A stretch of 64,000 nucleotides of DNA from positions 32,001 to 96,000 of IMG/VR virus record IMGVR_UViG_3300043773_000401. One strand, given 5' to 3'. This document shows, piece after piece, positions 6,080 through 59,825 of the stretch; position 1 is the first letter of the stretch; every line of letters begins with the position of its first letter. A program made the position numbers and the translations under genes. Source of the DNA: a virus. The notes under the pieces were generated by a model. That model was not told the DNA's origin and did no database searches. It saw only the letters and a list, made by a program, of their open reading frames with translations.

Positions 6080-6116
6080 AAAGGGTAGGTTTTGATAGCC
6101 TACCCTTTTTTCTTTT
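6080..6116. terminator. bidirectional intrinsic terminator between the convergent replication and virion modules
   Basis: AAAGGGTAGGTT-ttgat-AGCCTACCCTTT hairpin with a long T tract on the right and a short A tract on the left. Confidence 0.85.
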
Positions 6117-35249: not shown

Positions 35250-37835
35250 CTATTGCTTATTTTGTGGATTAGAAGCTGTTGGATAACTATAATAATCAGG
35301 AAGTTCATATTCATCTTGTGGTTGATTTTTTGAACTTGCTGTTATAAGTTTAATAAGCTCTGCATTAGATAAATCAGAATAGTTTGGATCTGATCTATAT
35401 ATGTCATATAGCTCAAGTGGTGTTTTAGCAGAACCTGCACTTGGTTTCATTGTAGAACCTCTAGTAAATATAACATTACCTGTAACAGGATCTGTTTGAA
35501 AGTGAGGATACATTGCATTCATAGCTGCTGTCTTACCAGCATTAGTAAGACCTGTAATATAGTTTTGTCTTGCAGCAACTCTTAATGCTCTTGTAGTATC
35601 ATCATAGTTTTGATTAGTAGCTACAGTTTCATCATAGAAGTTTTTCATAATAGCAGCATTCTGTCTATTCTGCTCATTAGATATTTGTTTTCTAGTAAGC
35701 TCAAATGTATTAGCAATACCAACATTCTGTTTATTTACTTGATCCATAATGTTAGCTGCATTAGCTGCTGCCTTTCCTTGTACACTAGATACTCTAGATG
35801 ATAAAGCTTGTGGTCCTGCAAATGCTCCTAATGCTTGTGATGCTATAGCTGCTTGTTCAGCATTAGCTGCAAGAGCTCTTTCTGGAGATATAAAAGTAGG
35901 ACTAGGTAACTCATAGTTAACTGTCTGTAGTGTTGGGTAGTATCTGTTAACTGAATAGATATCACCTATTGATCCTAAAGTATTTGCTACATCTTGTGTC
36001 CACCATCTAGCTGGAGTAACACCAGTTTCAGTAGCATCTAATGGTTCAACATCATAAGGTTCTACTTTATCTTCTTCTTTTTCTTCTTCTAAATCTAATA
36101 GATTATAAGCTGCATCTTTAGGAAGAATAATTTCACCTGCTGTAGTATTTCCATAGATAGCATCTATTGGAGAAATTGGTCTTCCTTTTTCATCTGTTTG
36201 ATCTTTTTTACCTATAGGTGTAACATCAAAGTTAGCAAGAACATCTTTATACTTAGGATCATCAGCTAGCTCTTGTATAGATTTAAAAATTCCTTGGAAT
36301 GCTCTGATTTTAGTATCATCAAAAGCATCAAACCCTAGTTGAGACATTACTTCTTTATATCTTTTATTTCTTGGGTATGTATCCCAGGATGGATCACCAA
36401 CTACTTTAGTACCAGATGCATTAATAGCATAGTTCTGTTTTTGTCCTTCTAAGAATATCTCAGTTACTTCTTCAGGTGTAAGTTTTAAAAGCTCATCTTT
36501 TTGACCTTGACTTAGTCCACTTCTAAAACCTTTAATTTTTTCTTGAAACTGTTTATATAAATCTTGTTGTAAATTTTTATTGTTTCTGAAAAGATAATCT
36601 AACTGACCATACTGAGTTTGTAGTTTACCTAATCTAGGATCATCAATTTTAGTTGAAGGCATTACAACACCTTTAAGCAACTGATATCCTCCACCTGGTT
36701 TTTCTACAAATATTTTTTGGTCTTTAGTAGCTATCTTTTGAGTTTGTTGTAGTCTTGCTTGGAAGTCTATATCGGATTCTCCTTTTATTCTAGATACAAT
36801 AAGATCTTTACCTTCTCTTGGTCCATTCTTATATTTCTTAGTAACTTGTTCTCCATCTTGGTATTTTTTTAAACTACCTCCTTGTTTCATCATTGCTTGG
36901 CCTTGCATATAAGCTGGTTCTTCAAACATGACTTGTTCTTCCATAGGAGCTTCCATTGTCATAGGTTGCTGCAATGCTTCAGCCATTTGTTGAATAGTAA
37001 CCATCTGATCTTCTTCTGGTAGTTCTTGAAGCTGCATCATTATTTGTTTAGCATCTCCACCAGTAAGTTGTGCAAACTGTGATATAATATTACTAATAAC
37101 ATCATAGTCTAATTCTGTGTCTTCTTCCATTTCTGGTGATCCCCCATATTGCATAGGTGGTACCATTTCATATTGTGCTTCTGATTGAGCCATTGCATTT
37201 TGTTGTGGCATACCTTGTTGCATTTGTTGAGGTGCCATCTGTGGTAAAATAGACTCTGCTGTAGTACCTACTTTATCCATATAAGGTAAAGCTACTATTG
37301 GAACTCCTTGAGGAAATCCTTTTTTAGCTTCTTGTACTAATGCTAGCTTTCCTAACTTAATGTTATAGTTCTTAATCATTAGTTCAGCAGTTTTCTTAGC
37401 AAACTTATCAGAGTCTGGACTAGCAAGAATCTTTACATATTCATTAATGTCATATTTATTAGCAAGCTCTGCAGGTGTATAACCTTTAACTCCTTTCTTT
37501 TTAGTTTTACCAAATTGTTCTAAGAGTTCTTTTTCTTTGATCTTCATACTGTTGGTATCACTGTATATAAAAGAATCATTAGGAGCTTTTAAAGGTGTGC
37601 CTCCCTCATAATGTCTTTTACCTCCAATCTTATATGTTGCAGGAATACCACCAAACTTAGAAGGTATCATAATAATTTCACCTTTCTCAGCTTCTAGATC
37701 AGCTTCTTCTCTAGGTACACCAGGAAGACTTTTATTTACCTTAAGCTTTGGTTCAGATAATTTATCAGGAATAAACTGGGGAGCCATCTGATTATACCAG
37801 ATACCACCATTTTTAAATATGAATTTCTTACTCAT
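35250..37835 (-). CDS. putative virion cargo protein with xxGG motifs and Q/M-rich linker
   Basis: Probable start MSKKFIFKNGG at 37835; EAEKGE...GKRHYEGG domain; QYGG and MKQGG motifs; C-terminal Ala/Gln/Asn-rich coiled coil. Confidence 0.65.
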   Translation of the reverse strand: MSKKFIFKNGGIWYNQMAPQFIPDKLSEPKLKVNKSLPGVPREEADLEAEKGEIIMIPSKFGGIPATYKIGGKRHYEGGTPLKAPNDSFIYSDTNSMKIKEKELLEQFGKTKKKGVKGYTPAELANKYDINEYVKILASPDSDKFAKKTAELMIKNYNIKLGKLALVQEAKKGFPQGVPIVALPYMDKVGTTAESILPQMAPQQMQQGMPQQNAMAQSEAQYEMVPPMQYGGSPEMEEDTELDYDVISNIISQFAQLTGGDAKQIMMQLQELPEEDQMVTIQQMAEALQQPMTMEAPMEEQVMFEEPAYMQGQAMMKQGGSLKKYQDGEQVTKKYKNGPREGKDLIVSRIKGESDIDFQARLQQTQKIATKDQKIFVEKPGGGYQLLKGVVMPSTKIDDPRLGKLQTQYGQLDYLFRNNKNLQQDLYKQFQEKIKGFRSGLSQGQKDELLKLTPEEVTEIFLEGQKQNYAINASGTKVVGDPSWDTYPRNKRYKEVMSQLGFDAFDDTKIRAFQGIFKSIQELADDPKYKDVLANFDVTPIGKKDQTDEKGRPISPIDAIYGNTTAGEIILPKDAAYNLLDLEEEKEEDKVEPYDVEPLDATETGVTPARWWTQDVANTLGSIGDIYSVNRYYPTLQTVNYELPSPTFISPERALAANAEQAAIASQALGAFAGPQALSSRVSSVQGKAAANAANIMDQVNKQNVGIANTFELTRKQISNEQNRQNAAIMKNFYDETVATNQNYDDTTRALRVAARQNYITGLTNAGKTAAMNAMYPHFQTDPVTGNVIFTRGSTMKPSAGSAKTPLELYDIYRSDPNYSDLSNAELIKLITASSKNQPQDEYELPDYYSYPTASNPQNKQ

Positions 37836-40440
37836 ATGTATTACCTCCAATATTTTTGATTTTTCTTATAACAGGGCTAGTTAAGAATTGTGTCATACCA
37901 TTTACAAATACACCACCTTGTTGTGCATATGGTCCAGTATATACTAGTTCATTAGGTCTAAATGAATTCCAGTTAGTAGAATAATCTCCACGGTTAGTAT
38001 CATAGTTTTGCATAAACAAAGAAGTAGGGTCTTGCATCTTCTTTCTAAAGTCTTGCTTTCTTTTATTAGCTTCTAGATCTTTTCCTATACCTGTAAGCAT
38101 ATTAACACCCATCAATGATAGATCTGCTATAGATTGATTAGTAGGTCTTAGACCTTCTTTAATATCAGCTTCTACAGAATTATTTAATAGGTTTTTAAAT
38201 TTGAATGTTTTATTAAATCCAGATCCATCTGCATATTTAGGCATACCTCCATATCTTCTATAAGTCATATCATATAACTTAGTACCTGGTTGTCCTTCAC
38301 CTTGTCCAGTAGTATTATCCATAGTAGGAGCTGGAGTATTATAATTATTAGCAGCAGTATTTGTAGCTGTTGAAGGTGTTGTATTAGTATTAGTAAGATT
38401 ACTAGTAGTTGTATTAGATGTGTTAGTTGTATTGGCAGTATTACTTGTTGCTGTACCTGGACCAAAGTTTAATATCCCTTTGAATCTTTTAAGTGAAGGA
38501 GATCCCCAGAATATAGGATTTCTAGTTTTTAGTTCATTAACAACTATTTGATTTAAAGGACCAGCAAATCCTGTAAAACCACCAGGGAAATTACCTTTAA
38601 GTTTAACATTAGAATATGGTTGCCAGTTAATAGGTAGTAAATCAAATAAACCACCTGTAGGTCTTGGACTTGTTTGTACATTAGTTTTAGAACTTACATC
38701 TACCCAAGTTGTACCATCCCATCTTTTATATTTACCATCTATTACTCTTATATCTCCTTTTTCTAGTCCACTTGTTTTACCATCTGTCCCAGTATTAGCT
38801 TTACTATCTGTTCCACCAGAAGGTCCAGCAACATTAACACCTGTTGGAAGATTACTAGTAGTAGCTGATCCTGCATTAGAACTATAATATTTCTTAGCAT
38901 AATCTTTTGTTTCATTTACTCTATTTGTCCATTCAGCTAGTTTAGAAGGAGTAACACCTGAAGTATTAGTATAACTTCTAATTTTTTCTGCAGCAAAAGG
39001 ATCACCTAAAGCATCTCCCATTGCCATAACATCTTTACCATATTTTTGCCAAGCTGCATCTACAGCAGTAGGATCTAATTTTCCTGACTTATACATAGCA
39101 ACTTTTTCTGCAGGTGTTAATTTACCAGCAGCTACCATCATAGAAGCTCTAGGATCTTCACTATTAAAAGCAAAGTCAAAACCCATAGCTTGTTGGGATA
39201 GTGGAAGTTCATAAAGTCCATACTTATTATAGTACTTATCTATAGCATCTTTAATAGCTTCATCTCTTCCTCCTGTATATGGTGAATATGATTTTTCTGG
39301 ATCTTGTGTAAATCCATAATTGTCATAACCTAATCTAGTCTCACGATCTATTGTATTAGCAACAATATCATATGCTTTATTATACTCAGGTGTACCAGGT
39401 TGAACAGCTTTTCCTACTTGAGCTTGTTCTAATGCTTCATCTTCTTTTTCTAGCTCTTCTTGATTCTTTAAGTATTGACTAAATGGAGTAAACTGATCAG
39501 ATCTCATATTATCAAATCTACCACCAAAGAATGCTGATAACCCTTCTCTAAATCCTGGTTCTGTTTCAGAAGCTTCATAAGCATCTTGAAAAGATTCCCA
39601 GTTACTAAATGGATCAAAGTTAAGTTCATTAGTATTACCACCATCTGCCATCTTTTTCATTCCTCCATTCTTCATTAAGAAAGGATATGTTTCTTTAAGA
39701 TTAGCCATGGCAGCTGTACTTCTTAGATAATTGATAAAGTTAGTTGTCTTACCTAAATAACTATCTGGTCCTTCTGAGTATCCTGCCATACCACCATCTT
39801 GTGCCATTGGCATAGCCTCTTCTTGCATTTCTCCCATTTGTTGGGGTTGCATTTGTTGAGCTTGCATTTCTTGTTCCATCATCTGTTGATCCATAGGAGC
39901 TTCAGTTTGTGGTGAAGAAGATTGAGCTTCCATAATAGGTCTTACTTCTTCAATGATCTGCATTAAAGCTTGTTCTTGTTCTTCAGGACTAAGTTGCTGT
40001 AGTTGTGCTATTACATCTTCTACACTTGAGTTTATAGATTCAGCATATATAGCAAGTACTTGAGCTATCATATCTTGTTGACTCTGACCACCATCTTGTC
40101 TTTTTCTTAATCCTCCCCCACATTCAAAACATGGCTGACCACCTTTCATGAACATCATCATATTAGGAGCAGGTATACCATAGCTAAACATTTGAGCTGC
40201 AGTAGGAGCTGCATAATAAGGAGACCCCCCATTCTTCATGGTAACAGTACTAAACTGCATAGGAGCACCAAAGTTATAAAACTCTGCTTCTGTTCTAGCT
40301 TGGGGAAAAGCTGTAGTACCACCAAACTTCATCTGAAATTTTTCTGGGGTATCATACTCTCTATAAAATGCTGCTTCTCCTTCTGGGGTGTTTGGATACC
40401 CTGCCATGCTTAGGTAGTCTTCTTTTCTCATAGAATACAT
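37828..40440 (-). CDS. putative virion cargo protein with many xxGG motifs and a GH108-like muramidase domain
   Basis: Repeated KFGG/KNGG/MKGG/QDGG/ADGG/RYGG/QQGG; central RET...NYGFT...LP...FDFAFNS...WTNRV pattern; T/N-rich linker. Confidence 0.65.
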   Translation of the reverse strand: MYSMRKEDYLSMAGYPNTPEGEAAFYREYDTPEKFQMKFGGTTAFPQARTEAEFYNFGAPMQFSTVTMKNGGSPYYAAPTAAQMFSYGIPAPNMMMFMKGGQPCFECGGGLRKRQDGGQSQQDMIAQVLAIYAESINSSVEDVIAQLQQLSPEEQEQALMQIIEEVRPIMEAQSSSPQTEAPMDQQMMEQEMQAQQMQPQQMGEMQEEAMPMAQDGGMAGYSEGPDSYLGKTTNFINYLRSTAAMANLKETYPFLMKNGGMKKMADGGNTNELNFDPFSNWESFQDAYEASETEPGFREGLSAFFGGRFDNMRSDQFTPFSQYLKNQEELEKEDEALEQAQVGKAVQPGTPEYNKAYDIVANTIDRETRLGYDNYGFTQDPEKSYSPYTGGRDEAIKDAIDKYYNKYGLYELPLSQQAMGFDFAFNSEDPRASMMVAAGKLTPAEKVAMYKSGKLDPTAVDAAWQKYGKDVMAMGDALGDPFAAEKIRSYTNTSGVTPSKLAEWTNRVNETKDYAKKYYSSNAGSATTSNLPTGVNVAGPSGGTDSKANTGTDGKTSGLEKGDIRVIDGKYKRWDGTTWVDVSSKTNVQTSPRPTGGLFDLLPINWQPYSNVKLKGNFPGGFTGFAGPLNQIVVNELKTRNPIFWGSPSLKRFKGILNFGPGTATSNTANTTNTSNTTTSNLTNTNTTPSTATNTAANNYNTPAPTMDNTTGQGEGQPGTKLYDMTYRRYGGMPKYADGSGFNKTFKFKNLLNNSVEADIKEGLRPTNQSIADLSLMGVNMLTGIGKDLEANKRKQDFRKKMQDPTSLFMQNYDTNRGDYSTNWNSFRPNELVYTGPYAQQGGVFVNGMTQFLTSPVIRKIKNIGGNTYE

Positions 40441-40449
40441 ATTAATATA

Positions 40450-40481
40450 CTAATATACAAATATAATGTTAATTATTCAAA
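40450..40481 (-). promoter_or_regulatory. Bacteroidota-like promoter TTTG-N20-TATATTAG
   Basis: Minus-strand TTTG (40481-40478), 20-nt spacer, TATATTAG (40457-40450), 9 nt before ATG 40440. Confidence 0.6.
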
Positions 40482-43400
40482 TTATCTAGCCAGCCTCTCT
40501 TTTGTCCTCCATATTTATTCATTTGACCAGTAGTAAATCCTAAAGGCACATTAATAGCTTTTCCTGTATTTTGAAATGGAAGAATTATTGCAGGACGTTC
40601 ATTTACCCATCTATCACTATAACTTGGATCTCTTCCTATACTTTGTAAAAAATTAAAAAGTTTTGCTGAATATCTTCTTTCATTTCCTGCAGCATAATCA
40701 CTTAATCTAGATCTTTTTGAAATATCTAATCCTGTATCTGCAGGTTTAAATAATTTATTAATTTTTCTTGCTTGTTCAGGAGTAAGTTCTTTATCTCTAA
40801 AACTATGATTTATTTTCATTATATCTTCCCATTCCTTTTTTAAATTTGGATATATTTCATTTATATCATTAGGAGTTTTATTAGGATCTATTTTACCATA
40901 TTTATCATAAATAGCATCTATTCTTTTTAAATATTCTTTATTATTTTTTATAAGTTGATTGATTTCAGCATTTGTATAAAAATCTTTTTCTGTTAAAAGA
41001 GGTTCTTTAGTAGCTAGACTTTTTGCCTCATTTACTAGATTTTTTTTATTAGTTAGTTGTTCTTTTTTCCATTTCCTAGCATAGTCTTTTACATCTTTAA
41101 TAGCCTCATCGTAATATTTTCTTTGAGTAAAATTTTGATAATCTTCAGGATCTGCTTTGTATACAAGTCTTCCAGAAGCATCTCTATATTCTAACTTCTT
41201 AGGATTTACATATGTAGGTTTACCTTTACCTCTAGTAAATTGTGGTTGACCAGCAAATGAAGAAAGTATACCTTCAGCACCAGTTAATGCCATTTTAGTA
41301 TAATCTACTTCTCCAGTATTAGGATCCACAAATGGAGCCGATATATCTGTAGAAGGTAGATTAATAGACCCTTGATTCATTGGTCCATATCCTGATGTTC
41401 CTTGCTCTGTATAAAATAATTGAGGTAGTCTATTTCTAAATTCTTTAATAAACTTATTAGGTTCTTTACCAAAGAATGCTCCTTGATTTATTAATGCTCT
41501 AGGATCTGCTTTATCAGATATTTCTATAGCTGGTAAATCTATAGGTCCTATAGTAGGAACTTCTTCACCTACTTGTGCTTTAGGTAGATTATCTAACCAT
41601 CCTCCTTTTTTATACATTGTATTATTATTTAATTGATTATATCCTGCAGCACCTAATCCAGTTAAACCTATTGCTGGTATTAAAGCTGGAGCATTATTTA
41701 ACTGTTCTGTTAAGAATCTAAGATTAATAGGACTCTTTTTTATAAAACTACCTATTCTGTCTCCTTTAGTACTATTAAAATAATCTATTACCATATCTTT
41801 AGTAATACGATCTTCTAAGTTTTTAATAATGCCTTTATTCATCATATTCTGTCTTAACTCTCTTAAATGAGGTAATCTTTCAACATCTCCTTTCTCAAGG
41901 TGGTGCCAATAATCTAAAGATTCTGCTGCTCTTGTAAGTTCAGGTGTATTTGTCATTGTTCTAGATGAGCCTTCAATATTAGCTAATTGTTGTATAGCTT
42001 CAGGTTTAGCTTCTAATGTTTTTAAAGCTTCATCTATTTTAGTAGGTTTACTTAATAATGTTGGTCCTGTTGGTTCAGGATCATATAACCAATTATATAT
42101 ATTACGTTTAAATGGATTGGTAGTTTTTTTAGCTTCAATTTGTCTTTGTTTCCATTCAGCTAATTCATCTTGAAATTTTTTAATATCTTTCAAGTATTCA
42201 TTCATTCTATAATATTCTCTTTGTAAATGGTGACCTGTTTCATGTTCTAATGCAGTTCTAGGAGTTAAATCTAAACCTCGTTGTTTTTTTAAGTTATTTA
42301 ATTCTCTAAAGTCTATATTAACTGTAGCTGTTGGAGAAAAATACTTGGTCTTTTCACCTGATCTAAATGTTAAATTATAAGGTATCATTTTGTCAGGTGT
42401 AATACCAATATCTTCTAATCTTCTTCTACCTTCTGGTGTTTTCCAAAACTCTGCTGATTTATTAGAATATTCTTTAAGATCTTTAATCTCTTTTCTAAAT
42501 TGTAAAGGGGTTATAAGCTTATTATCTAAGTTATTCTTAAGCTTAGTAGTAAGTTCTTTAAAAAAGTTTTTTAACTCTTCAGAACTAAGATCTCTATATC
42601 GTAATGCATTAACAGCATTTGATAATGGTTTTTTAGTTAATGATCCTATTCCTCCTAACATAGGAGTTACCTCAGCCATATTAAGTGATCTTTCTACATC
42701 AGCTTCATCTAAAATAGGAGTAGCACCATATGCCCCAGCAACTAGGTTAAGGAAAGTTTTACCATACTTAGTAGGATTATTATAGATATCTCTAGCAGCA
42801 TTAATAGGTGATGATAATATTTCTGCCATGTATTGTCCAGAAGGATCTAGTTTAGGTCCTAGATCTATATCTGGTAAGTTTTGTCTAAAACCAGCTACTC
42901 TAGTTGCATCTTGTGCTCTATTAGCTTCAAGAGCTTCTTGTTTAGATAAACCTTTATTATTAAACTCATACATACTAGGTTTAGGCTTAGTAGCTTCTTT
43001 AAGAAATGTACCTAAATCTTTATTTTTACTATATTGAAATTTAGGTTTAACTTCACCTCTATCCTGATAAGTATCTAACCACCCACCTTTACCAAATCTA
43101 TAACTTACTCCTGTAGTTATATTGGGTTGATTATAATATGATCCTGCAGAAAAGTTTACATTACCTCTACCTTTATTAAAGGGTATATTAGCACTTATAC
43201 TAGGACTAATATATTGACTTAATTCAGGGTCAGATTCTATATTAAATCTATTAGCTAAGTCAAAATTTATATTACCAAAATCTACATTAGCTCCAAAGTC
43301 TCCTTCTATACCTGTATCTCCAGACCATGTTGGATAACCACCAATGTAACCATATGGACTAACTTGAATTCTTCCTTTTTGTGCTCTATCTAACCATCCT

Positions 43401-44650
43401 CCTGTTTTCTTTTTATTTATAAATTGCTTATAAGATTCTGATTGTTTTAGTATATCATATTCTTTAGGTGATAATGTTTGTGTTTTAGTATTTTTATTTG
43501 TAGGATCACCATAATATATTGTGTATGTATCACCTATTCCTTGAGTCCAATCTTTTGATATGTGATTTATAGGTTTAGGTTTTTGGTTCTTTACAGTAAT
43601 TATTTCTTTTTTTGGTTCTTCTTTTTTTACAGAATTTTTATTTTTCTGATATTCTTCCCAAGCAGCTTGTGATTTTTTACCCCATATACCATCTACTTCA
43701 CCAATATTAAATCCAGCATTTACTAATTCTTCTTGTTTAGCTCTTATTTCTGGATTTCTATACACTACAGGTTGTACTGGTTTTTTATATACAGGAACAA
43801 ATGCTGTTCCTGCTCCATTATATCCAGAAGTATATTGATCTATTCTTGTAGGTTTAATTTTATTTTTATCAATACCATACAAAGGAAGTAAATCAGATAT
43901 TAATGGGTCATTTATATTAAATCTTCTTTCTACACTTTCACTTCCTCTAGTAGCTAAATCTTTTTTATATTTATTATATAAACTTAAACTATCATTATAA
44001 TCCTGTAGTCTAGGATCATTAGGGTTATCTACATAGATAGTTCCTCTTTGAGCTTTAGGTATATTATCTAGCCACCCTCCATTTTTCTTTATACCTAGTT
44101 CTTTTTTCCAAGATCCTTTATCTGCAAAATTTATAGCAGCTTCTTCATCTTCTCCAAAGTTATATACCTCACCTCTTTTTTGAGCTTCCTTATATATCTT
44201 CATCCAGTCTTTTTCATCAGACATATTAACCCATGAGTTATCTGGATTTTGAAATATACTAGGAAATGCTACCCATCCTGTAGGTCCGTATTCTCTCATC
44301 ATGTAATGAGTAGAAGGTTCAGTTTGTCCTTTTAATGTTATTGATCCAACTCTAGGTTTTACATTATATCCTTTCTGAGCCATAGGTATCTCATATACTT
44401 TGTTACCTGGATAGAGATAGTCTTGTTCTGGATACATCATCTGTGAGTTACCTAAATCATCCATTCCAAATACTGGATAAGGAACTCCTTTCATAGTTAT
44501 ACTATTACTATTAATTAGTGTAGGTTCTCCGGGGAATTCCCATTGACCATAATCAGATTCTATAAAACCTGATGTAGTTCTTTTAACATAATTAGGACCT
44601 CCTTTAAGACCTTCAGTAGCTTTCTTCTGATAGTATAACTTCTTCTTCAT
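40469..44650 (-). CDS. modular cargo polyprotein with GGWLD-delimited cassettes (peptidoglycan-binding, beta-strand-rich, zincin and unknown modules)
   Basis: Five GWLD linkers; QEELVNAGFNIGEVDGIWGKKSQAAW (PG_binding_1-like); HETGH at 42230-42244. Confidence 0.75.
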   Translation of the reverse strand: MKKKLYYQKKATEGLKGGPNYVKRTTSGFIESDYGQWEFPGEPTLINSNSITMKGVPYPVFGMDDLGNSQMMYPEQDYLYPGNKVYEIPMAQKGYNVKPRVGSITLKGQTEPSTHYMMREYGPTGWVAFPSIFQNPDNSWVNMSDEKDWMKIYKEAQKRGEVYNFGEDEEAAINFADKGSWKKELGIKKNGGWLDNIPKAQRGTIYVDNPNDPRLQDYNDSLSLYNKYKKDLATRGSESVERRFNINDPLISDLLPLYGIDKNKIKPTRIDQYTSGYNGAGTAFVPVYKKPVQPVVYRNPEIRAKQEELVNAGFNIGEVDGIWGKKSQAAWEEYQKNKNSVKKEEPKKEIITVKNQKPKPINHISKDWTQGIGDTYTIYYGDPTNKNTKTQTLSPKEYDILKQSESYKQFINKKKTGGWLDRAQKGRIQVSPYGYIGGYPTWSGDTGIEGDFGANVDFGNINFDLANRFNIESDPELSQYISPSISANIPFNKGRGNVNFSAGSYYNQPNITTGVSYRFGKGGWLDTYQDRGEVKPKFQYSKNKDLGTFLKEATKPKPSMYEFNNKGLSKQEALEANRAQDATRVAGFRQNLPDIDLGPKLDPSGQYMAEILSSPINAARDIYNNPTKYGKTFLNLVAGAYGATPILDEADVERSLNMAEVTPMLGGIGSLTKKPLSNAVNALRYRDLSSEELKNFFKELTTKLKNNLDNKLITPLQFRKEIKDLKEYSNKSAEFWKTPEGRRRLEDIGITPDKMIPYNLTFRSGEKTKYFSPTATVNIDFRELNNLKKQRGLDLTPRTALEHETGHHLQREYYRMNEYLKDIKKFQDELAEWKQRQIEAKKTTNPFKRNIYNWLYDPEPTGPTLLSKPTKIDEALKTLEAKPEAIQQLANIEGSSRTMTNTPELTRAAESLDYWHHLEKGDVERLPHLRELRQNMMNKGIIKNLEDRITKDMVIDYFNSTKGDRIGSFIKKSPINLRFLTEQLNNAPALIPAIGLTGLGAAGYNQLNNNTMYKKGGWLDNLPKAQVGEEVPTIGPIDLPAIEISDKADPRALINQGAFFGKEPNKFIKEFRNRLPQLFYTEQGTSGYGPMNQGSINLPSTDISAPFVDPNTGEVDYTKMALTGAEGILSSFAGQPQFTRGKGKPTYVNPKKLEYRDASGRLVYKADPEDYQNFTQRKYYDEAIKDVKDYARKWKKEQLTNKKNLVNEAKSLATKEPLLTEKDFYTNAEINQLIKNNKEYLKRIDAIYDKYGKIDPNKTPNDINEIYPNLKKEWEDIMKINHSFRDKELTPEQARKINKLFKPADTGLDISKRSRLSDYAAGNERRYSAKLFNFLQSIGRDPSYSDRWVNERPAIILPFQNTGKAINVPLGFTTGQMNKYGGQKRGWLDNLNN
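40484..44080 (-). repeat. dispersed in-frame (G)GWLD linker repeats, five copies
   Basis: + strand ATCTARCCAYCCWCC at 44066-44080, 43388-43402, 43073-43087 and 41591-41605, with a partial copy at 40484-40495. Confidence 0.85.
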
Positions 44651-47600
44651 CGTGGTGACAGTAAGTTTTTAGTATTAGATATCTTGAATATCATTTTAAC
44701 ATTTCCAGATTTTTCTCTATATAGATTTATAAAGTTAAGATAATGTCTAAACTTCTTTCTCTGTAATGGATCTTTGCTATAGTTTAAGTTGTTCTGGTTA
44801 AGAACTCTATCATAACCATTTTCTGATGTATCCCATATAGCTCTTTGAGCATAACCAGGAATAGTAGGATTTAAGAACTCTCCTCTATCTGCAGTAATAT
44901 CCCAGAACTGATTGAATCTATATTTGTTTTCTTCTTTAGAAAATAGTACTTCTATATTGTTAAGATTGATAATAGGATATTGTAGTCTTCCTATGATATC
45001 ATTCTTAGGTGTACCTCTAAGTATTAACTGTCCTGATACTTGTTCAGGATTGTAAATAACGGCATGATCAAAGTTAAAGTCTAGTCCTGTGTTAGGATCT
45101 GTAAGAACATTAAACTGATCTATACCATTAGTAGAGTAAATATAGTTTTCTAGAATATACTCTACACTTCTTATAGTATTTACTGTTTGACCGGTAGGTA
45201 TTGCATACTCTACTTCAAATCTGTAATCTTGATTATAGAAGTTACAGAAGCTATCTGTTCTAAAGTTATGTCTCCAAATACCAGTATCTTTTGTAGTATA
45301 GAAGTTTCTTCTACTAGGTATAACCATATCAGGGTGCCAGTCATGGTAAGATATCCAAGCTTCTGATTTAGCATCATAACTTACTGTCCAAGATGCATCT
45401 TCAAAGATTTCATTTTCTTCTAGTTTATACTCACCACCTCTGTAAATAAATAGGTTTACTTCAGTTTCTTTACCAGTTACTGGATCTGTTTGGTATCTTA
45501 CAAATCTAACTTCTTCCTTAGGAACCTTAAGTTTAAAGTCTTTCTTACAGAAGTATACTAACTGATCAGAGTTATCATATATAGTTTGACATCCTACACC
45601 AGATATTGGATTATCAGTAAATGGATATTCTGGAAAATCTTGTGTTAGTCTATAAGGTAAATACCAATCAAACCACCATCTTAATCCTGAAGCAGATATT
45701 TCTTTTAATCCACCAAAGTATCTAAAGATTTTACCTTGACTTTGACTTATCCAATATACTCCAGTAGGTGTGCTTATTATTGAGTATCTGTCTTGGCATG
45801 ATCCATATTCAAATGCTATATCTGCATTTACAATTGACTGTTGTGGTTGTGAGAATAGACCTCCATCACCAATAGTTACCTTAGTACCAAGTTCTGTTTC
45901 TAGAACATCTACTCCTTGGAACATTAATGGACTATCAGTTTCAAATGTTATAATAGCACCATTCTTAGCAATACCATTAATAGAGTTAGGTTTGTTTAAG
46001 AACTCTTTATAGTTATTAGCTAGGAATGCATACCAGAAATCTTTCTTAGCTTCCAAGTTTTGAGGAAGAGAATAAAGAACTCTGTTTGGATAATAAGTAT
46101 AACAAAACTCAGATACATTAGGGTCATAACCTCTATCTTGCATATTACCCCATGAGATATAGTTATTAAATAACTTAGTTATACTTAGTGAGTAATCATA
46201 CTTATAGTAGTTATCAGCTTTTATAATCTCAGTATCAAACAATGCTTGTAGATCTGTATATCTAAATGGATCATAGAATCTTTCTTGTGGTTCTTCATCC
46301 CAGTCTCTTTGATCTACATTAATCTCTGACTCTACAATGAAGTCTCTTACTCCTGTATTAAATAAATAGAAGAATCCATTAAGTACATTAAATAGTCCAC
46401 TGCTACCTGCAAATGGTACAGCTGTACAATGTCCTCTATCTAGATGATGAAAATTACTTGGGAATAAAGGATTAGATACTGGATCAGGTTCAGTAAATGT
46501 TGATCCATTAAATAGTGTATTTAAGAAACTACCTAAATCAAAGCCTGTAAAATTTGCCCAGAATCTAGGATACTGAATCATATACTTAAGTGTATAGTCT
46601 AGTTCAGTACCATCTGGTAAATTATATAACCAGTCATAGAAATAGAAGAACTTATTTTTTTCTGTATATCTACCAACATATGTATCTCCACCAAACATTA
46701 ATCCTGTAGAATATTTTTTATCAAACTCACAAGGATTAGCTAGTTGTTCATTAGTAATTCTACCAATCTTAAACATACATGGAGAAGCTACTACTTGTTT
46801 AACTTGATCTAGTTGACCATACAAGTTTCTTATCCTATACTTAAGAGCTCCATAATAAACTGCTGTTTTAGTTCTAAACTGAGCAGTGTAATTATCAAAC
46901 CATACTTTATCTTGTGAATTAGCAGATAGGTTATTACCTAAGTTATCAGCACCTGTTGGAAATAAAGCAGGGAAACTCGTAGCAGCTTGAACAGATCCTA
47001 AAGTTTGTATAGTATTATCTGTAAATAAATATTGTGAATTAGGATTAGTAATACAAGTACCTATAGCATTAAGTATTTTATCTTGTAGAGTTATAGGTTT
47101 ATCTAGATCTAGTACTACACATTTATTTCTAAATAAGTTATTTATAGTATACTCTTTAGGATTTAATGGGAAGTTTTCTACCTGTATAGTTTGTAGATTA
47201 GTATCTAAGTATAATGATTGATTTATAAGTTTTCTTTGATTACCTATAGCACAAGCTCTTCCTGGATCAAATACTGTATAAGCTCCATGAGATCTATACA
47301 TAAGAGCATACTGTTCATATGATAAGAAAGCTTCTATAAGTTTAAGTACAGAGTCTGCTGCTTGTGTCCAATAATATATAAGTGTAGTAATAGCACCAAC
47401 CGGCATAATAGAATTACTATTTTGAAAAGCAGTCTCTTCAAATTCATATTCTGTTTCTGGTCCTAATGATGCAGGCTGACCTGTAGCTGTTGTAAAACTT
47501 ATTGTAGCACCAACATCAGCTGAACCAATTAATGGTACAAGAGAATTTAATAATTCTGCTATTGGAGTTTGAGCTGCTAAAGCACCATTTACAGATCCTG

Positions 47601-50010
47601 TAATTATTCCTGCTGATGTAGCAGCTGCTGCAGTTATTGGTTGATCTACTATACCTGTTATAACTCCACCATTAGGTCCTCCTAATACTAAATTGTATTG
47701 AGCTCCTCCTATGTTTAATGTTCTTGCAGATGTTACTCTTTTCTTTTTACCACCGGATATAGCTAAAGCAGCAATACCAATACCTGCTATAGCTGATACA
47801 GTAAATGCAAAATCAGAAACTAGTTTATGTTTAGGATGTCCTGGTACATCATCAAAATTACCATATACATCACCAAATAATTCACCATATAACTTAAGTT
47901 CTGTCTCAGCTAAGAATGGTTCTCTAAATGTAGTATCAGGAGAATGAAAAGTAAACTGTTGAGTTTTAACATTTGAGGATGTTACTTGAGCATCATTATA
48001 ATTTGAACATCCTAAAGGAGGATAACTTAATTCATCAGTAGCAAGAGAAAAATCAGTACCTAGTGGATTATATGGATAGTTCTGATATAATGCAGATCTT
48101 ACTCCATTACCATCATCATCTATAGTATACTCTCTCATGTTATTAAGAATACCTTTAGCAACAATAGTTTTGTTACCTTCACGAGTACCTCTTAATATTT
48201 CATAACCAACAATACCAGGTATACCTATACCATCATTATCAACCGGGTATCTTATATTGTCAAACTCAACACCTAGTAATACATAACCATCAGCAATACC
48301 ATACTGATGACCAATCTGGTTACTACTGTTATTGTTTACACCACCTGTTGTTGTAAAGTGAGGTATACATTTATTATCTGGCATCTTATGATGTCTAATA
48401 AACTCACTACATAGATTAACTTCAGGTTCTTCAGTACATGCTTCATTAGACCAAGGATGAGCACAAGTATTCCATACATTAGGTTTATTAGGATATACTT
48501 CAGTTGACTGCCAGTATCCCATATCTCCTCTTGCTAATACTTCTCCACCATCATCTGAAAACTCTGTACCTGGAAGAACTAATTGTGTTACTGATGCTGT
48601 GTTATATACTTCAAAGAAATATTTATCAAAATAGATGTTATCTTCTACAGGGAAAGACTGACTAAGATCTCCATAACCTTGAGGTACACAATTACCTAAA
48701 TCTAATTGTTCTTTAGGTGGTCTACCAGGAATATGATAGCTAGCTGATTTTTCTCCTGTTTCATATACCCATCTAATCCAGAATGAATATATCTCATCTC
48801 TTAAGTATCCAGTTTTGTTACCACCTTTACGGTAATAGTCTGCCGGATATTTAACTGCTACCCATTTAGCTTTAATTCTATTTGCTAAAGGTTGATAGTT
48901 AAAGTCTAATCTTGTGGTAGGACTAAGTCTTAATAAGTAGTCATTAACACTAGAGATAATCTCAGACTTCTCATATATAGGAGTTCTGATAGGAATAAAC
49001 TCTAGTGGTACAGTAGGAAGCTCAAGATTAAATATATCTAGAGTAATAGATCCTACACGTGTATTATAATAACCTACTCTTTTAGCTATAGTATTCTGAG
49101 CAATGTTAGATACAAGTACTAATTCAAATTCATCAAAGAAGTCTTGATCTATATCTTCTATAGTAATATCTAATGATCCCGCAAGATTATTATGAGCAAA
49201 TAGAGATTGAGTATTAGAAGGACTAAAATAGTCTGTTACTTTTTGTCCATTAATAGAATAAGCTAGTACTACATAATAACTACCATTAGGTAAAGTACCA
49301 CCGGCAATTCCTTTGCTTACTTTAACACATGGTGTCTTAACTAATCTAGCTAATCTTATTTTATCACAATCTAAAGCAAGAGGAAGTTTATTTACACATA
49401 CTTCACAACCAATACCAGAATCAGAAGGAATAGGATTAGTTTTACAGTCAGGATCTATAAAAGAACAATCTTGTTCATAAGGAAGACCAGGCCATTCTCC
49501 AGTATATTCACATCCTTGATTTGCAGCAGGCCATAATTGGGGATCTCCTATATTCATAGATCTATCTGGATTCTTACCATCAGCCCAATATATTTGCCAA
49601 GAACAATCAAAGTTCTTTTTAGCTTTACCTGTAATAGGATATAGTGTACTAAAGTTTAAGCAAGTATCTCTAGTAATAGGTATATAAGTACAATTCTTTT
49701 CATTGAACAAACCTATCTCAGAAGATTGTGTAAAGTCATTAGCTGCAAAGATTACCCAGTTGCTATCAAACAAATGTATTCTACCATGAATTCTACCACC
49801 AGGTGTACATATAGAAGCACAAAGTAAGTTAGACTGTTCATTACTTAATGTACCTAAGTCTCCTTCACTAGTTGCATTAACTGTATTTACTGCATGTGAC
49901 CAAGCATTATCTGGAAAGTATGAATCATTATAATCTTTTATAAGACCTTTGACAAAACTCTGTGTTTTAACAGAGCTGCTTCCTGATGAAGGTGTTTGCT
50001 TCTTACCCAT
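44647..50010 (-). CDS. tail stabilisation/muzzle-like protein (crAss-like)
   Basis: 1787 aa, beta-rich; FVKGLIKD N-terminus, YWADGKNPDR, GYLRDEIYSF, FGGDTYVGR, WTVSYD...WISYHDW; located after two ring genes. Confidence 0.7.
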   Translation of the reverse strand: MGKKQTPSSGSSSVKTQSFVKGLIKDYNDSYFPDNAWSHAVNTVNATSEGDLGTLSNEQSNLLCASICTPGGRIHGRIHLFDSNWVIFAANDFTQSSEIGLFNEKNCTYIPITRDTCLNFSTLYPITGKAKKNFDCSWQIYWADGKNPDRSMNIGDPQLWPAANQGCEYTGEWPGLPYEQDCSFIDPDCKTNPIPSDSGIGCEVCVNKLPLALDCDKIRLARLVKTPCVKVSKGIAGGTLPNGSYYVVLAYSINGQKVTDYFSPSNTQSLFAHNNLAGSLDITIEDIDQDFFDEFELVLVSNIAQNTIAKRVGYYNTRVGSITLDIFNLELPTVPLEFIPIRTPIYEKSEIISSVNDYLLRLSPTTRLDFNYQPLANRIKAKWVAVKYPADYYRKGGNKTGYLRDEIYSFWIRWVYETGEKSASYHIPGRPPKEQLDLGNCVPQGYGDLSQSFPVEDNIYFDKYFFEVYNTASVTQLVLPGTEFSDDGGEVLARGDMGYWQSTEVYPNKPNVWNTCAHPWSNEACTEEPEVNLCSEFIRHHKMPDNKCIPHFTTTGGVNNNSSNQIGHQYGIADGYVLLGVEFDNIRYPVDNDGIGIPGIVGYEILRGTREGNKTIVAKGILNNMREYTIDDDGNGVRSALYQNYPYNPLGTDFSLATDELSYPPLGCSNYNDAQVTSSNVKTQQFTFHSPDTTFREPFLAETELKLYGELFGDVYGNFDDVPGHPKHKLVSDFAFTVSAIAGIGIAALAISGGKKKRVTSARTLNIGGAQYNLVLGGPNGGVITGIVDQPITAAAATSAGIITGSVNGALAAQTPIAELLNSLVPLIGSADVGATISFTTATGQPASLGPETEYEFEETAFQNSNSIMPVGAITTLIYYWTQAADSVLKLIEAFLSYEQYALMYRSHGAYTVFDPGRACAIGNQRKLINQSLYLDTNLQTIQVENFPLNPKEYTINNLFRNKCVVLDLDKPITLQDKILNAIGTCITNPNSQYLFTDNTIQTLGSVQAATSFPALFPTGADNLGNNLSANSQDKVWFDNYTAQFRTKTAVYYGALKYRIRNLYGQLDQVKQVVASPCMFKIGRITNEQLANPCEFDKKYSTGLMFGGDTYVGRYTEKNKFFYFYDWLYNLPDGTELDYTLKYMIQYPRFWANFTGFDLGSFLNTLFNGSTFTEPDPVSNPLFPSNFHHLDRGHCTAVPFAGSSGLFNVLNGFFYLFNTGVRDFIVESEINVDQRDWDEEPQERFYDPFRYTDLQALFDTEIIKADNYYKYDYSLSITKLFNNYISWGNMQDRGYDPNVSEFCYTYYPNRVLYSLPQNLEAKKDFWYAFLANNYKEFLNKPNSINGIAKNGAIITFETDSPLMFQGVDVLETELGTKVTIGDGGLFSQPQQSIVNADIAFEYGSCQDRYSIISTPTGVYWISQSQGKIFRYFGGLKEISASGLRWWFDWYLPYRLTQDFPEYPFTDNPISGVGCQTIYDNSDQLVYFCKKDFKLKVPKEEVRFVRYQTDPVTGKETEVNLFIYRGGEYKLEENEIFEDASWTVSYDAKSEAWISYHDWHPDMVIPSRRNFYTTKDTGIWRHNFRTDSFCNFYNQDYRFEVEYAIPTGQTVNTIRSVEYILENYIYSTNGIDQFNVLTDPNTGLDFNFDHAVIYNPEQVSGQLILRGTPKNDIIGRLQYPIINLNNIEVLFSKEENKYRFNQFWDITADRGEFLNPTIPGYAQRAIWDTSENGYDRVLNQNNLNYSKDPLQRKKFRHYLNFINLYREKSGNVKMIFKISNTKNLLSPR

Positions 50011-51050
50011 TACACAACATTATTTACTCTCAAAGTAGGATTATAAAAGTAGCTCTTAAACATATCATAGTATCTAGAATACTGTGCTTTTCTATTCATT
50101 AACCATACCTTCTGCATTTCAGAGAAGTTAGGAGTATTAACTATAGATAAAGCATTATTTCTAGCTGCCCTTAATTCTTGTTGTATATATTGAAGTTGGC
50201 CTACAACATTGTCTCCAGACATTAATAAATTCTCAAGTACTCTTTTCTTCATAGCATACTCATAATATTCATTAATCATTGGATGATCTACTACCATTAA
50301 GTTACCATCATCATCTTCCATCATTCCTTGGTAGTTAATATATAGATGACCACATTCCATTGTAGTATGTACAAAACCATCTTTTATCCAAGCTTCATCT
50401 GCAGCAGCCATATTTACGTTAGGACAGTCACAGTCTGTAAACATGGAGTTTCTAAACTTAATAGGAAAGAAATGTCTCCATACTCTAGTTTCTGTATTGA
50501 TAACTTGTACCATCTCATATGCTTCTCCTTGTTTACAGTTAACCACTAGTCTAGGTTTGATACAAGTATCACCTTGTGGTTCTGCTGGGTTATATACTGG
50601 AGCAGGCATTGTACAAGAACAAACTCTAGGAGCTAAGCAAGATGCATTAGCACAACCACATACTGTTGTATTACATTTACTACAGTTGACAGTAGGACTA
50701 GAACATATATTTATAGTTGCTGGATACTCTTTATATTGAGGTACATAATCAATCTGCTGTATATTAGTTCCCTGTGGTGTAGCATAAGTAGTAGTCATCT
50801 CTCCACATAGAGTAGCAAAGTTCATTACAAAGAAGTCATCTGGTAACTTAGCTTTATTCTTTTCTATTTCAAGAACTACTTCTTTAGTTACATATATCCT
50901 TAGACCAAGGTCATAATTAACCTTCATTGCTATCTTAACAAGTTGAGCAGGATCTACTTTACCTTCTAAAGATTGGGTATATAGATCTAACCTGACATCA
51001 TCTAATAGACTGTCAAAGGTTCTGTATTTGAGGGTATAGTTATAATTCAT
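50010..51050 (-). CDS. tail ring/adaptor protein with Cys-rich insertion
   Basis: KAKLPDDF and YINYQG...DDDG...DHP pattern; position between ring and muzzle genes; central CSKC...CGC...C...CSC stretch. Confidence 0.6.
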   Translation of the reverse strand: MNYNYTLKYRTFDSLLDDVRLDLYTQSLEGKVDPAQLVKIAMKVNYDLGLRIYVTKEVVLEIEKNKAKLPDDFFVMNFATLCGEMTTTYATPQGTNIQQIDYVPQYKEYPATINICSSPTVNCSKCNTTVCGCANASCLAPRVCSCTMPAPVYNPAEPQGDTCIKPRLVVNCKQGEAYEMVQVINTETRVWRHFFPIKFRNSMFTDCDCPNVNMAAADEAWIKDGFVHTTMECGHLYINYQGMMEDDDGNLMVVDHPMINEYYEYAMKKRVLENLLMSGDNVVGQLQYIQQELRAARNNALSIVNTPNFSEMQKVWLMNRKAQYSRYYDMFKSYFYNPTLRVNNVV

Positions 51051-51727
51051 TATCTAAGAACATTTTGTTTGTCATCTGCGGCCATGTCTACAGGTACCTG
51101 CATATTAATAGACATATCTTTTACCACCATTTGTTCAATCTCAGCAAGTAAGAAGTCTGGTATTTGTAAAGCCTGGCTTTGACGAATAGCACACTTCTGC
51201 TCCTCAGTTGTACACTGATAAATAGATATATCATCTTCAAAGATACCTTCAATACTAAGTGCATCCCAATCTACATTTGGTACATATATATAATCATTAA
51301 TATACCAATAATATTTCTTTTTATCATACTTAGCACCTGATGTATTTCTAGATGCTTGAAAAATAGCAGGTTGTGTAATGTATACATTCTCAGATCCATC
51401 TATAGAACTGATTGTTCTAAACAATGGACCAAAAGGACCTTCCATAATCCTAGGAAGCTTATCTTTAGTTCTCTTAAATGTAACATTAGATTTTACTCCA
51501 GCACAACATGCTTCTACTCTATCTACATCTATAAGTTCTACACAAGGTAAAGTTTTAAAGAAGCTCTGAAACTTTAAGATCTGGTTTAAAGAATCTTGTC
51601 TCTTAATAAGTAGTTTACCATACTTAATTATCTCACTGTAGATAAATCTATCTGTAAGAAATGGATCTTCCTTTACAGCTTTAAGAATGTTTCTAACACG
51701 TGATATTGCTTCTCCTATTGTTGTCAT
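51050..51727 (-). CDS. tail ring/tube protein (crAss-like)
   Basis: TLPCVELIDVD...CC...KRTKDKLP...YYWYINDYIY...IEGIFED pattern; follows the IHF-like gene. Confidence 0.6.
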   Translation of the reverse strand: MTTIGEAISRVRNILKAVKEDPFLTDRFIYSEIIKYGKLLIKRQDSLNQILKFQSFFKTLPCVELIDVDRVEACCAGVKSNVTFKRTKDKLPRIMEGPFGPLFRTISSIDGSENVYITQPAIFQASRNTSGAKYDKKKYYWYINDYIYVPNVDWDALSIEGIFEDDISIYQCTTEEQKCAIRQSQALQIPDFLLAEIEQMVVKDMSINMQVPVDMAADDKQNVLR

Positions 51728-59231: not shown

Positions 59232-59825
59232 TTACCCCATCATTTCATCATCTAGCAGACGGAGAGCTATCTTGTCTGTACCAAATGCTTCTAGACGGTC
59301 CATCCAGTTTTGCATCTTGCCCATCTCTTCTACTTGTTCTTTAAGATAACCTAATGCTAGTTCATACATAATATGATCACCTCTCATTAAAGCTTTAGAA
59401 GCTAGATCTTTAATTTGAGAACTAATCTCAATCTCATGATCATATGACTTCTGAATAATCTCAGGTAATCCACCTGGATAGTTTTGTTCTGGTTGATCAA
59501 GTACAGGAGTTAATGGTTGTAAACCAAATGATAAGACATACTTACGTGCTATATCAGCATGACCCATTTCTTCTGCAGAATATCCATTCCATTGTTTAGC
59601 AGCACCTAGATAACCTTTGTCATCTAACCACATTGCCATAGACTTATATATTCTAGCAGAATATTCTTCCTGTTGTATACGGTAGTTAAGATAATCTAAA
59701 CCTTCTTGTGAGATTAAAGGATTGTCTGTCTTAAGTGGAGGAGCTCCTTTTAAACCTGAAACACCAACTACTTTTGGTGCTGAGCTTGCATCTCCTGTTC
59801 TTTTAAGCATTCTATTGTTTTCCAT
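59232..59825 (-). CDS. ftn: ferritin (non-heme, FtnA-like)
   Basis: Ferroxidase-centre pattern QEEYSARIYKSMAMW, EEMGHA, HEIEIS, EQVEE and terminal LLD. Confidence 0.88.
   Translation of the reverse strand: MENNRMLKRTGDASSAPKVVGVSGLKGAPPLKTDNPLISQEGLDYLNYRIQQEEYSARIYKSMAMWLDDKGYLGAAKQWNGYSAEEMGHADIARKYVLSFGLQPLTPVLDQPEQNYPGGLPEIIQKSYDHEIEISSQIKDLASKALMRGDHIMYELALGYLKEQVEEMGKMQNWMDRLEAFGTDKIALRLLDDEMMG

Follow-up and report, generated by a model that had tools for sequence, protein, structure and literature searches.

The window analysed here, 64,000 nucleotides in length and comprising bases 32001-96000 of a 114,817-base IMG/VR virus record (IMGVR_UViG_3300043773_000401, estimated to be 96% complete), carries on its minus strand an open reading frame (ORF; 40469..44650, designated P0001) whose product of 1393 amino acids (aa) is a chain of mutually unrelated modules separated, and terminated, by copies of a short peptide with the core GGWLD, here called the tag. 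The gene directly follows that of a muzzle protein, in the slot of cargo protein 1 in crAss-like phages. With moderate confidence, the product is read as a virion-packaged and ejected protein of the polyvalent type, the modules of which are fenced by an address or docking tag that would remain uncut. This reading draws on the anatomy of the protein, its genomic context, the shuffling of modules among its relatives, the bias of the tags toward protein ends, and the tag-like joints of a structurally characterized cargo protein, gp45 of crAss001.

Tags and Modules of the 1393-Residue Protein

Four internal tags have the form K-x-G-G-W-L-D followed by (P)-x-A-Q-x-G or Y-Q-D-R-G. Each is present as a motif in the translation, on the minus strand as are all features of this ORF: tag 1, KKNGGWLDNIPKAQRG, at residues 188-203 (44042..44089); tag 2, KKTGGWLDRAQKG, at residues 414-426 (43373..43411); tag 3, FGKGGWLDTYQDRG, at residues 519-532 (43055..43096); and tag 4, YKKGGWLDNLPKAQVG, at residues 1013-1028 (41567..41614). 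Tag 5, the C-terminal GQKRGWLDNLNN (residues 1382-1393; 40472..40507), is followed at once by the stop codon, the protein ending in ..K-R-G-W-L-D-N-L-N-N (RGWLDNLNN), and belongs to the C-terminal class that is commonest in relatives. The related piece PMAQKG occupies residues 89-94. An initial annotation of this DNA, made from the sequence, had listed these linkers and the terminal copy as dividing the protein into unrelated modules; all of them are found in the translation, and comparison of the protein with itself by BLAST shows no similarity between modules. In a six-frame scan of the 64-kb window the pattern GW[LIVM]D occurs five times in this ORF and once elsewhere, as an unrelated GWVD, and across the whole 114.8-kb genome (34,780 aa) the strict core occurs in five copies in the ORF and one in the remaining ORFs. 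A rough estimate from residue frequencies gives approximately 0.04 copies expected per 1393 aa, so that the repetition of the tag is not due to chance.

The first module, or head (residues 8-95, 88 aa; 44366..44629), ends in PMAQKG and is predicted to form a small cupin-like barrel. An AlphaFold2 model of residues 1-540, built from 55 aligned sequences, places this beta domain at a predicted local distance difference test (pLDDT) of 87-98, and residues I51, T52, V56, G67, V85, E87, and P89 are invariant. Among solved chains the head most resembles cupin-like barrels, a weak and generic likeness (VIA Z ≤ 4.7), and Foldseek returned no match for it at E ≤ 0.001. Module 2 (residues 96-187; 44090..44365) is short and helical, with a helical piece modelled at 130-182 and helices at 146-184 of pLDDT about 70-80, and is common only to the close relatives P0003-P0008. 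Module 3 (residues 204-413; 43412..44041) begins with a widely shared TIYVDNPNDPRL piece and a helix at 207-236, and the model also shows a beta/alpha piece at 360-417. Within it lies a three-helix domain (residues 296-340; 43631-43765) modelled at a pLDDT above 90 and resembling PG_binding_1. The match to that Pfam family (PF01471) has E = 0.0037 and 17.9 bits, below the cut-off of 23; PHROG endolysin families match at E = 4e-5, and solved structures matched in the VIA comparison are a peptidoglycan-binding protein (Z 5.5, root-mean-square deviation 2.5 over 44 residues, 27% identity) and phiKZ gp144 (Z 4.6). Module 4 (residues 427-518; 43097..43372) is rich in Gly, Asn, and Ser with an alternating strand-like pattern; AlphaFold gave it no confident fold (pLDDT about 30). 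Its alternating aromatic and hydrophobic residues, and its ..GVSYRF end just before the tag, recall the strands of outer-membrane beta-barrels with their terminal aromatic signal, and judging by this pattern module 4 could be a membrane-inserting piece of an ejection channel.

Module 5 (residues 533-1012; 41615..43054) is a predicted zincin-like metallopeptidase with a core at residues 673-993 and the motif HETGH at residues 803-807 (42230-42244). H803, E804, and H807 do not vary, and the nearly invariant E924 and E931 are candidates for the third zinc ligand. A search of 1.84 billion proteins yields 159 representative clusters for the family at E ≤ 1e-3, and HExxH is kept in 140 of 147 relatives. 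In an AlphaFold model of residues 533-1012 (49 sequences) the core has a pLDDT above 90 and is helical, with a three-stranded sheet preceding the HETGH helix; in the numbering of the model, HExxH lies on helix 264-284, after strands 226-245. The top rows of the comparison with solved structures (VIA) are zinc peptidases with Z of 6.8-5.1, including PepO/M13 (6.8), the catalytic domain of anthrax lethal factor (6.4), and Pro-Pro endopeptidases (5.2). Foldseek found no match at E ≤ 0.001, and no Pfam family matched the module here or in 48 relatives, except for one stray Peptidase_M91 hit (E = 0.0018). On the evidence of the model, the likeness is to zincins generically and is not membership of a family. 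Residues 986-1004 (41639-41695) form a weakly hydrophobic Gly/Ala tail whose Kyte-Doolittle maximum of only 1.11 makes a membrane helix doubtful, and that assignment was rejected. Module 6 (residues 1029-1381; 40508..41566) gave neither a Pfam lead nor a usable Atlas match. Of the module identities first proposed, therefore, the head, the peptidoglycan-binding-like domain, and the zincin-like domain now have a supported fold, whereas the "beta-strand module" (module 4) and the last module are left without an assignment. Tag 1 (within 183-206) and all of residues 418-540, including tags 2 and 3, have a pLDDT below 50. With these three tags in low-confidence stretches and the confident folds separate, the model of residues 1-540 shows no single fold that would incorporate GGWLD as a repeated structural element.

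Relatives of the protein share the head and little else. Of the 105 other matches found among 5.8 billion clusters, 104 share query residues 41-100, within the head, and the remainder of each protein differs. These matches carry domains as diverse as SLT, lysozyme, amidase, LysM, peptidoglycan-binding, ART-PolyVal, ADP-ribosyl-exotoxin-type, and SET domains. A scan of IMG/VR confirmed 252 stretches, of which 80 loci were kept, and 76 of the 80 have a muzzle homologue upstream in the same orientation. In a close clade (muzzle E = 0) the gene begins at the muzzle stop, the head is N-terminal, the length ranges from 288 to 2328 aa, and the modules and their Pfam domains differ; in a more distant clade the head stands at the C-terminal end and is followed by a conserved tail and a tag. 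By comparison with this spread of lengths, the portal keeps about 75% identity over more than 100 clusters. Modules recur with their flanking tags in other contexts. Module 6, from the tag at 1017 to that at 1386, reappears as the opening module of P0042, where the flanking tags are at 5 and 280, and has homologues inside P0002 and P0009; the zincin module runs from tag to tag in P0013 (241 to 784) and P0036 (507 to 1029); and a copy of module 4 with 68% identity lies tag-to-tag in P0002. With head alignments removed, the share of homology breakpoints no more than 15 aa from a tag was 20.1%, whereas randomly placed tags gave 6.3 ± 0.8%, an approximately threefold enrichment, and after dereplication the figures were 12.8% and 6.4 ± 0.6%. 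With all alignments included the test was not significant (8.0% against 7.0 ± 0.9%), the head-domain alignments having swamped it. The cassette array proposed at the outset is thus borne out, in that orthologues are not collinear and vary in length and modules, modules recur tag-flanked, and breakpoints cluster near tags. The constant head proposed with it is both N-terminal and constant in the close clade but is C-terminal in the more distant one. No match emerged when the full-length sequence was compared by tblastn with 50,697 phage records. Among cultured phages that have a muzzle-like gene and for which virion proteomics exist, the closest is Cellulophaga phage phi4:1; the eight neighbouring structural proteins scanned in it contain no such tags.

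Across relatives, 157 internal tags yield the consensus K-K-x-G-G-W-L-D-[KN]-[YL]-[QP]-x-[GA]-[GQ], in which W-L-D and [YL] are near-invariant, and 80 C-terminal copies reach the stop codon 0-2 residues after [YL]. A six-frame scan of the 80 loci found 104 copies: 39 within 12 residues of a stop, 31 with a Met six residues or fewer upstream, and 34 internal. About two thirds of the copies in these loci are therefore at or near protein ends, although about 20 of the 31 Met-preceded copies sit behind a roughly 36-aa Cys-rich leader and not at a true start. The N-terminal type reads M-K-(N-G)-G-W-L-D-N-Y, with true starts including MAKGWLDNY and MKGWLDKY. A minimal natural form, a 239-aa protein of locus L051, consists of leader, tag, spacer, head, tail, and tag, and such proteins, with tags at both ends and between modules, follow a pattern of n modules and n+1 tags. 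Because a hinge or a scissile bond would be useless at a terminus, the tag is best viewed as a signal at the peptide level. Sub-lineages use different dialects, among them GGWLDxY, GGTFNPDTDEFLxFVD, and GGFILE..GGYIVEEID; each is uniform within a protein and specific to its lineage, which indicates selection on the peptide. In the distant clade (L051, L066, L077, and others; for example L051:9653-9770) the Cys-rich leader (..CTCGWSWNK..CHECGRDN..), probably a zinc ribbon, stands directly before the first MKNGGWLD, and other proteins start at the tag. A downstream cargo gene of 893-1568 aa in L010, L051, L062, and others starts with MKAQILKIAGVK..KKAQxG and ends in ..(K/R)NGSIVKxxKN[IL], a pairing of start and NGSIVK-type end that, from its sequence, looks like a further terminal-tag dialect.

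The Cargo-1 Slot and crAss001 gp45

The genes around the ORF are arranged as in crAss001. On the minus strand, terminase (L083:5715-7910), portal (L083:2951-5713), major capsid protein (L083:1-1620, crossing the window end), tail ring protein 2 (51050-51727), tail ring protein 1 (50010-51050), and the muzzle protein (crAss_MUZ; 44647..50010) precede the 1393-aa gene in that order. Ring proteins 1 and 2 correspond to Pfam PF24228 and PF25702, and the muzzle matches PF25731 at E = 8.6e-30. After the 1393-aa gene come six more large genes, of 870, 866, 1075, 2243, 3777, and 2584 aa in minus-strand order. In crAss001 the order is ring, muzzle gp44, cargo 1 gp45, cargo 2 gp46, then large RNA-polymerase-associated proteins (PMC10172136); the match in order places the 1393-aa gene in the cargo-1 slot of an uncultured crAss-like phage.

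The crAss001 protein in this slot, gp45 (842 aa), is cargo protein 1, resolved in PDB entries 7QOG, 7QOI, 7QOJ, 7QOL, and 8CKB (PMC10172136) and represented in Pfam as PF25725, crAss_CARG1. It contains AFGGWLNTQGG at residues 425-435, at the N-edge of the CARG1 match (424-555). The cryo-electron microscopy report describes twelve copies of a compact domain, residues 425-552, seated on the portal wing, and a second resolved piece (residues 214-245) on rings 1 and 2; gp45 is proposed there to extend from the tail barrel, by way of the portal, into the head (PMC10172136). The second piece begins four residues after an S-A-Y-G-G joint. Since the tag lies within the reported 425-552 domain it is reported as ordered, and from this wording both Gly-Gly pairs are probably uncut in the virion. 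Eight relatives of gp45 were aligned (crAss001, cr106_1, cr128_1, cr111_1, IAS virus, cr126_1, DAC15, and Dulem virus 41). The conserved columns are the joints SAYGGPL, NARxWxxxGG-aromatic-L, and [FY]xxGG, with large insertions and deletions right after them; the barrel-bound piece is present in three of the eight, and most end in K-S-K-G-G-[YFK]-L... In cr128_1 about 210 extra residues separate ADGGNLN from LGGPINTHGG, and the CARG1 match starts at the second joint, residue 487. The start of this insert in the cr128_1 gp45 homologue (L087:1040-3604, plus strand), ..EGW..Y..GG..TVGPGI.., recalls lysozyme-type motifs, and Pfam reports nothing there at E ≤ 0.001. A further candidate, NWLDTL at about residue 800 of gp45, is kept in only two of the eight relatives and was not counted as a tag. 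The conserved joints, and the insertions and deletions after them, indicate that the tag grammar is shared with a bona fide cargo protein 1.

The likeness of the two proteins goes beyond the position of both genes directly after the muzzle gene. Each is a long, largely unstructured chain of modules; gp45 uses the joints AFGGWLNTQGG, SAYGGPL, and FAYGG and a C-terminal KAKGG..; in both, a GGWL-type piece comes after a weakly hydrophobic segment rich in Gly and Ala; and modules are inserted at the joints in relatives. The two differ in that the most conserved module of the 1393-aa protein is the unrelated-looking 88-aa beta head without detectable CARG1, in that the protein carries enzyme-like modules (zincin and peptidoglycan-binding) which gp45 lacks, and in that its tag is far more regular. 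The head was considered as a relative of CARG1 and rejected: in comparisons with gp45 by BLASTP, by a hidden Markov model built from 105 head sequences, and by hhalign, the tag was the only part that aligned, and the hidden Markov model matched gp45 below the inclusion threshold over only seven residues.

Docking, Cleavage, and Flexible-Joint Readings

By analogy with gp45, the product of the 1393-aa gene is probably carried in the particle and injected into the host. The modules are plausibly injected effectors, as the initial annotation had it, given the slot after the muzzle gene and the same analogy. In the mechanism proposed here, the conserved beta head would be followed by exchangeable modules, namely a peptidoglycan-binding-like module, a zincin-like peptidase with its weakly hydrophobic tail, and three of no assigned function. 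Each would have a copy of (K)-x-G-G-W-L-D-x-[YL] at either border, in many cases with P-x-A-Q-x-G after it. The tag would act as a flexible joint, and the portal, the tail lumen, or an assembly factor would recognise its WLDxY core within the particle; such recognition would allow each module to be loaded, held, and handed on during ejection.

Several points weigh against a docking tag. CARG1 (PF25725) was not detected, there being no match at E ≤ 1 in the 1393-aa protein and none at E ≤ 10 genome-wide. The receptor of the tag is a candidate only, whether portal, tail lumen, or assembly factor. It may be the modules rather than the tags that dock, as one of about five gp45 joints is reported as ordered and the barrel-bound piece 214-245 begins past its joint; the continuity of the gp45 chain through 425-435 rests, moreover, on the wording of the structural report. 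Finally, the C-terminal copies end just where internal copies change character, which would fit cleavage immediately after [YL], leaving each internal module with an end like a natural C-terminus.

This last point belongs to an alternative that is unlikely, namely that the tags are processing sites. A protease of the phage, perhaps the embedded zincin, or one of the host would cut each copy there or immediately behind it and so release the modules as separate proteins in the head or in the host. Its appeal lies in the polyprotein-like architecture, with a conserved joint of 13-16 residues and a zincin with an invariant HExxH in the same chain. The zincin module, however, occurs in only 9 of the 80 loci, and 44 loci with GWLD tags lack it within the 10 kb on either side that was covered. 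At the very C-terminal end of a protein, a tag would have nothing to release and cannot serve as a productive site of cleavage. In favour of cutting, natural C-termini stop where a cut would make internal modules look alike, and the true N-terminal tags (MKGWLDxY) could be short propeptides, as is the capsid-targeting sequence of T4. Scanning of ORFs from the window and the genome revealed no prohead protease. Autoprocessing of polyvalent proteins by zincin-like peptidases has been proposed (Iyer et al., 2017; PMC5512222). The gp45 tag, lying inside what is reported as one domain, appears uncut at both Gly-Gly pairs. Virions of crAss001 contain gp47, gp49, and gp50 and show gel bands at about 150, 270, and over 300 kDa (PMC6235969), matching the sizes of the uncut proteins, whose predicted masses are 262.5, 154.5, and 276.9 kDa, respectively (PMC10172136). 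If, as we infer, these bands correspond to these proteins, the large crAss001 cargo proteins run at about full length.

Were the tags instead flexible, extended joints without a specific partner, the modules would unfold and thread through the portal and tail channel, and conservation would stem from threading or from descent by duplication. The Gly-Gly pairs in low-confidence AlphaFold stretches, the extended course proposed for gp45 (PMC10172136), and the many joints in relatives that are reduced to xxGG or AQxG without WLD are in keeping with such joints. A hinge, though, explains neither the near-invariant W-L-D and [YL], nor the terminal copies, nor the use of one dialect throughout a protein and of others in other lineages, and we consider this reading quite improbable.

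The initial annotation had also held the linkers to be conserved as DNA and to serve as recombination microhomology. Pairwise identity among the five 15-nucleotide cores is 0.853, compared with 0.820 ± 0.030 expected when codons for the same residues are drawn from the usage of neighbouring genes (P = 0.17); the DNA consensus thus adds nothing beyond the peptide and codon bias. The proposed microhomology is without excess nucleotide conservation, and the uniform dialects point instead to selection at the peptide level. That the tags are mainly recombination scars or microhomologies, with cassettes exchanged at conserved DNA and the peptide a by-product, is very improbable: modules are indeed exchanged with breakpoints enriched at tags, and insertions fall right after joints in gp45 relatives, but the core is merely 15 nucleotides long and no more alike than peptide and codon usage predict, the peptide persists in relatives whose proteins, even in the head, are only about 40-65% identical, as well as at termini with no cassette beyond them, and 80% of homology breakpoints lie more than 15 aa from GWLD tags.

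Neighbouring Genes, Known Systems, and Significance

The two genes that follow in the cargo slots, both on the minus strand and encoding proteins of 870 aa (37828-40440) and 866 aa (35250-37850), contain degenerate forms of the tag joints. The 870-aa protein has 13 [KRQYFAM]xxGG sites and the C-terminal end ..IGGNTYE, and the 866-aa protein has the N-terminal start ..KNGGIWYNQMAPQ. Thus one cargo-slot gene has a tag-like end and the next begins with a tag-like piece (35250-40440). Further along the same strand, the 2584-aa giant protein (6116-13870) bears a GHKL-type ATPase domain at its N-terminus (HATPase_c_3, E = 5.5e-10) and the 2243-aa protein (25203-31934) a PD-(D/E)XK nuclease domain (E = 2.7e-5), so that the giant proteins of the cargo region are multi-domain as well. 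A ferritin-like protein is encoded inside the virion-gene block (59232-59825, minus strand; Pfam Ferritin, E = 5.9e-21), which is unusual for a structural module. Near the end of the record, a 732-aa protein (L083:16341-18539, minus strand; genome 112341-114539) carries BspA-type leucine-rich repeats (LRR_5, E = 1.6e-40) and DUF285 and is possibly a host-binding protein.

Short peptides are known to load cargo into HK97-fold shells, examples being the capsid-targeting sequence of T4 internal proteins and the cargo-loading peptides of encapsulins. The tag resembles these in being a conserved peptide of about ten residues at a protein end, beside a flexible stretch, on proteins that would end inside a shell; it differs in standing at both ends and between modules, and its loading role is putative. 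T7 gp16, an ejected internal protein of a podovirus, has a transglycosylase domain, and ejected proteins of this type resemble the 1393-aa protein and its relatives in their cell-wall-directed modules (peptidoglycan-binding-like here; SLT, lysozyme, and amidase in relatives). They have no sequence relation to it, and we know of no junction tags in them. T7 ejection proteins are cited in the structural report on crAss001 (PMC10172136).

A parallel in architecture is found in the polyvalent proteins that phages and conjugative elements encode (Iyer, Burroughs, Anand, de Souza, and Aravind, 2017; PMC5512222), in which many unrelated domains share one virion-associated chain. Here there are six mutually unrelated modules in a virion gene context, with a zincin-like peptidase, here a predicted one, among them in both cases, and relatives carry ART-PolyVal (PF18760; in P0039, P0043, P0053, and P0099), lysozyme, and SLT. 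In the Atlas, a look-alike of the zincin part (score 0.90) has an LPD23 domain, which is a lead only. The zincin here differs in having no Pfam family match, and a conserved junction or terminal peptide is not described for polyvalent proteins in that paper, from the text of which the words "linker" and "crAss" are absent. No published description of the tag was found under "GGWLD", in the literature on Crassvirales cargo and motifs, in a 2023 review, or in the polyvalent-protein paper.

Crassviruses carry about 5.5 MDa of cargo protein (PMC10172136). More broadly, and tentatively, the GG-aromatic-L-acidic peptide may be a Crassvirales-wide address code for such cargo, standing at the borders of every travelling module and read by an assembly factor or by a conserved internal surface such as the portal wing or tail lumen so as to load cargo and fix the order of ejection, with lineages co-evolving their dialects. 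If true, this code would be the phage counterpart of the cargo-loading peptides of encapsulins, and, if the tag is a loading signal, it would offer a handle for packaging chosen proteins into crAss-like particles. A tag that fences modules, caps protein ends, and is present in the sole solved cargo protein provides a concrete, mutable element through which cargo choice, stowage, and ordered release could be probed. Such a tag system would explain how effector modules, including cell-wall enzymes, ADP-ribosyltransferases, and peptidases, are swapped behind a nearly invariant particle.

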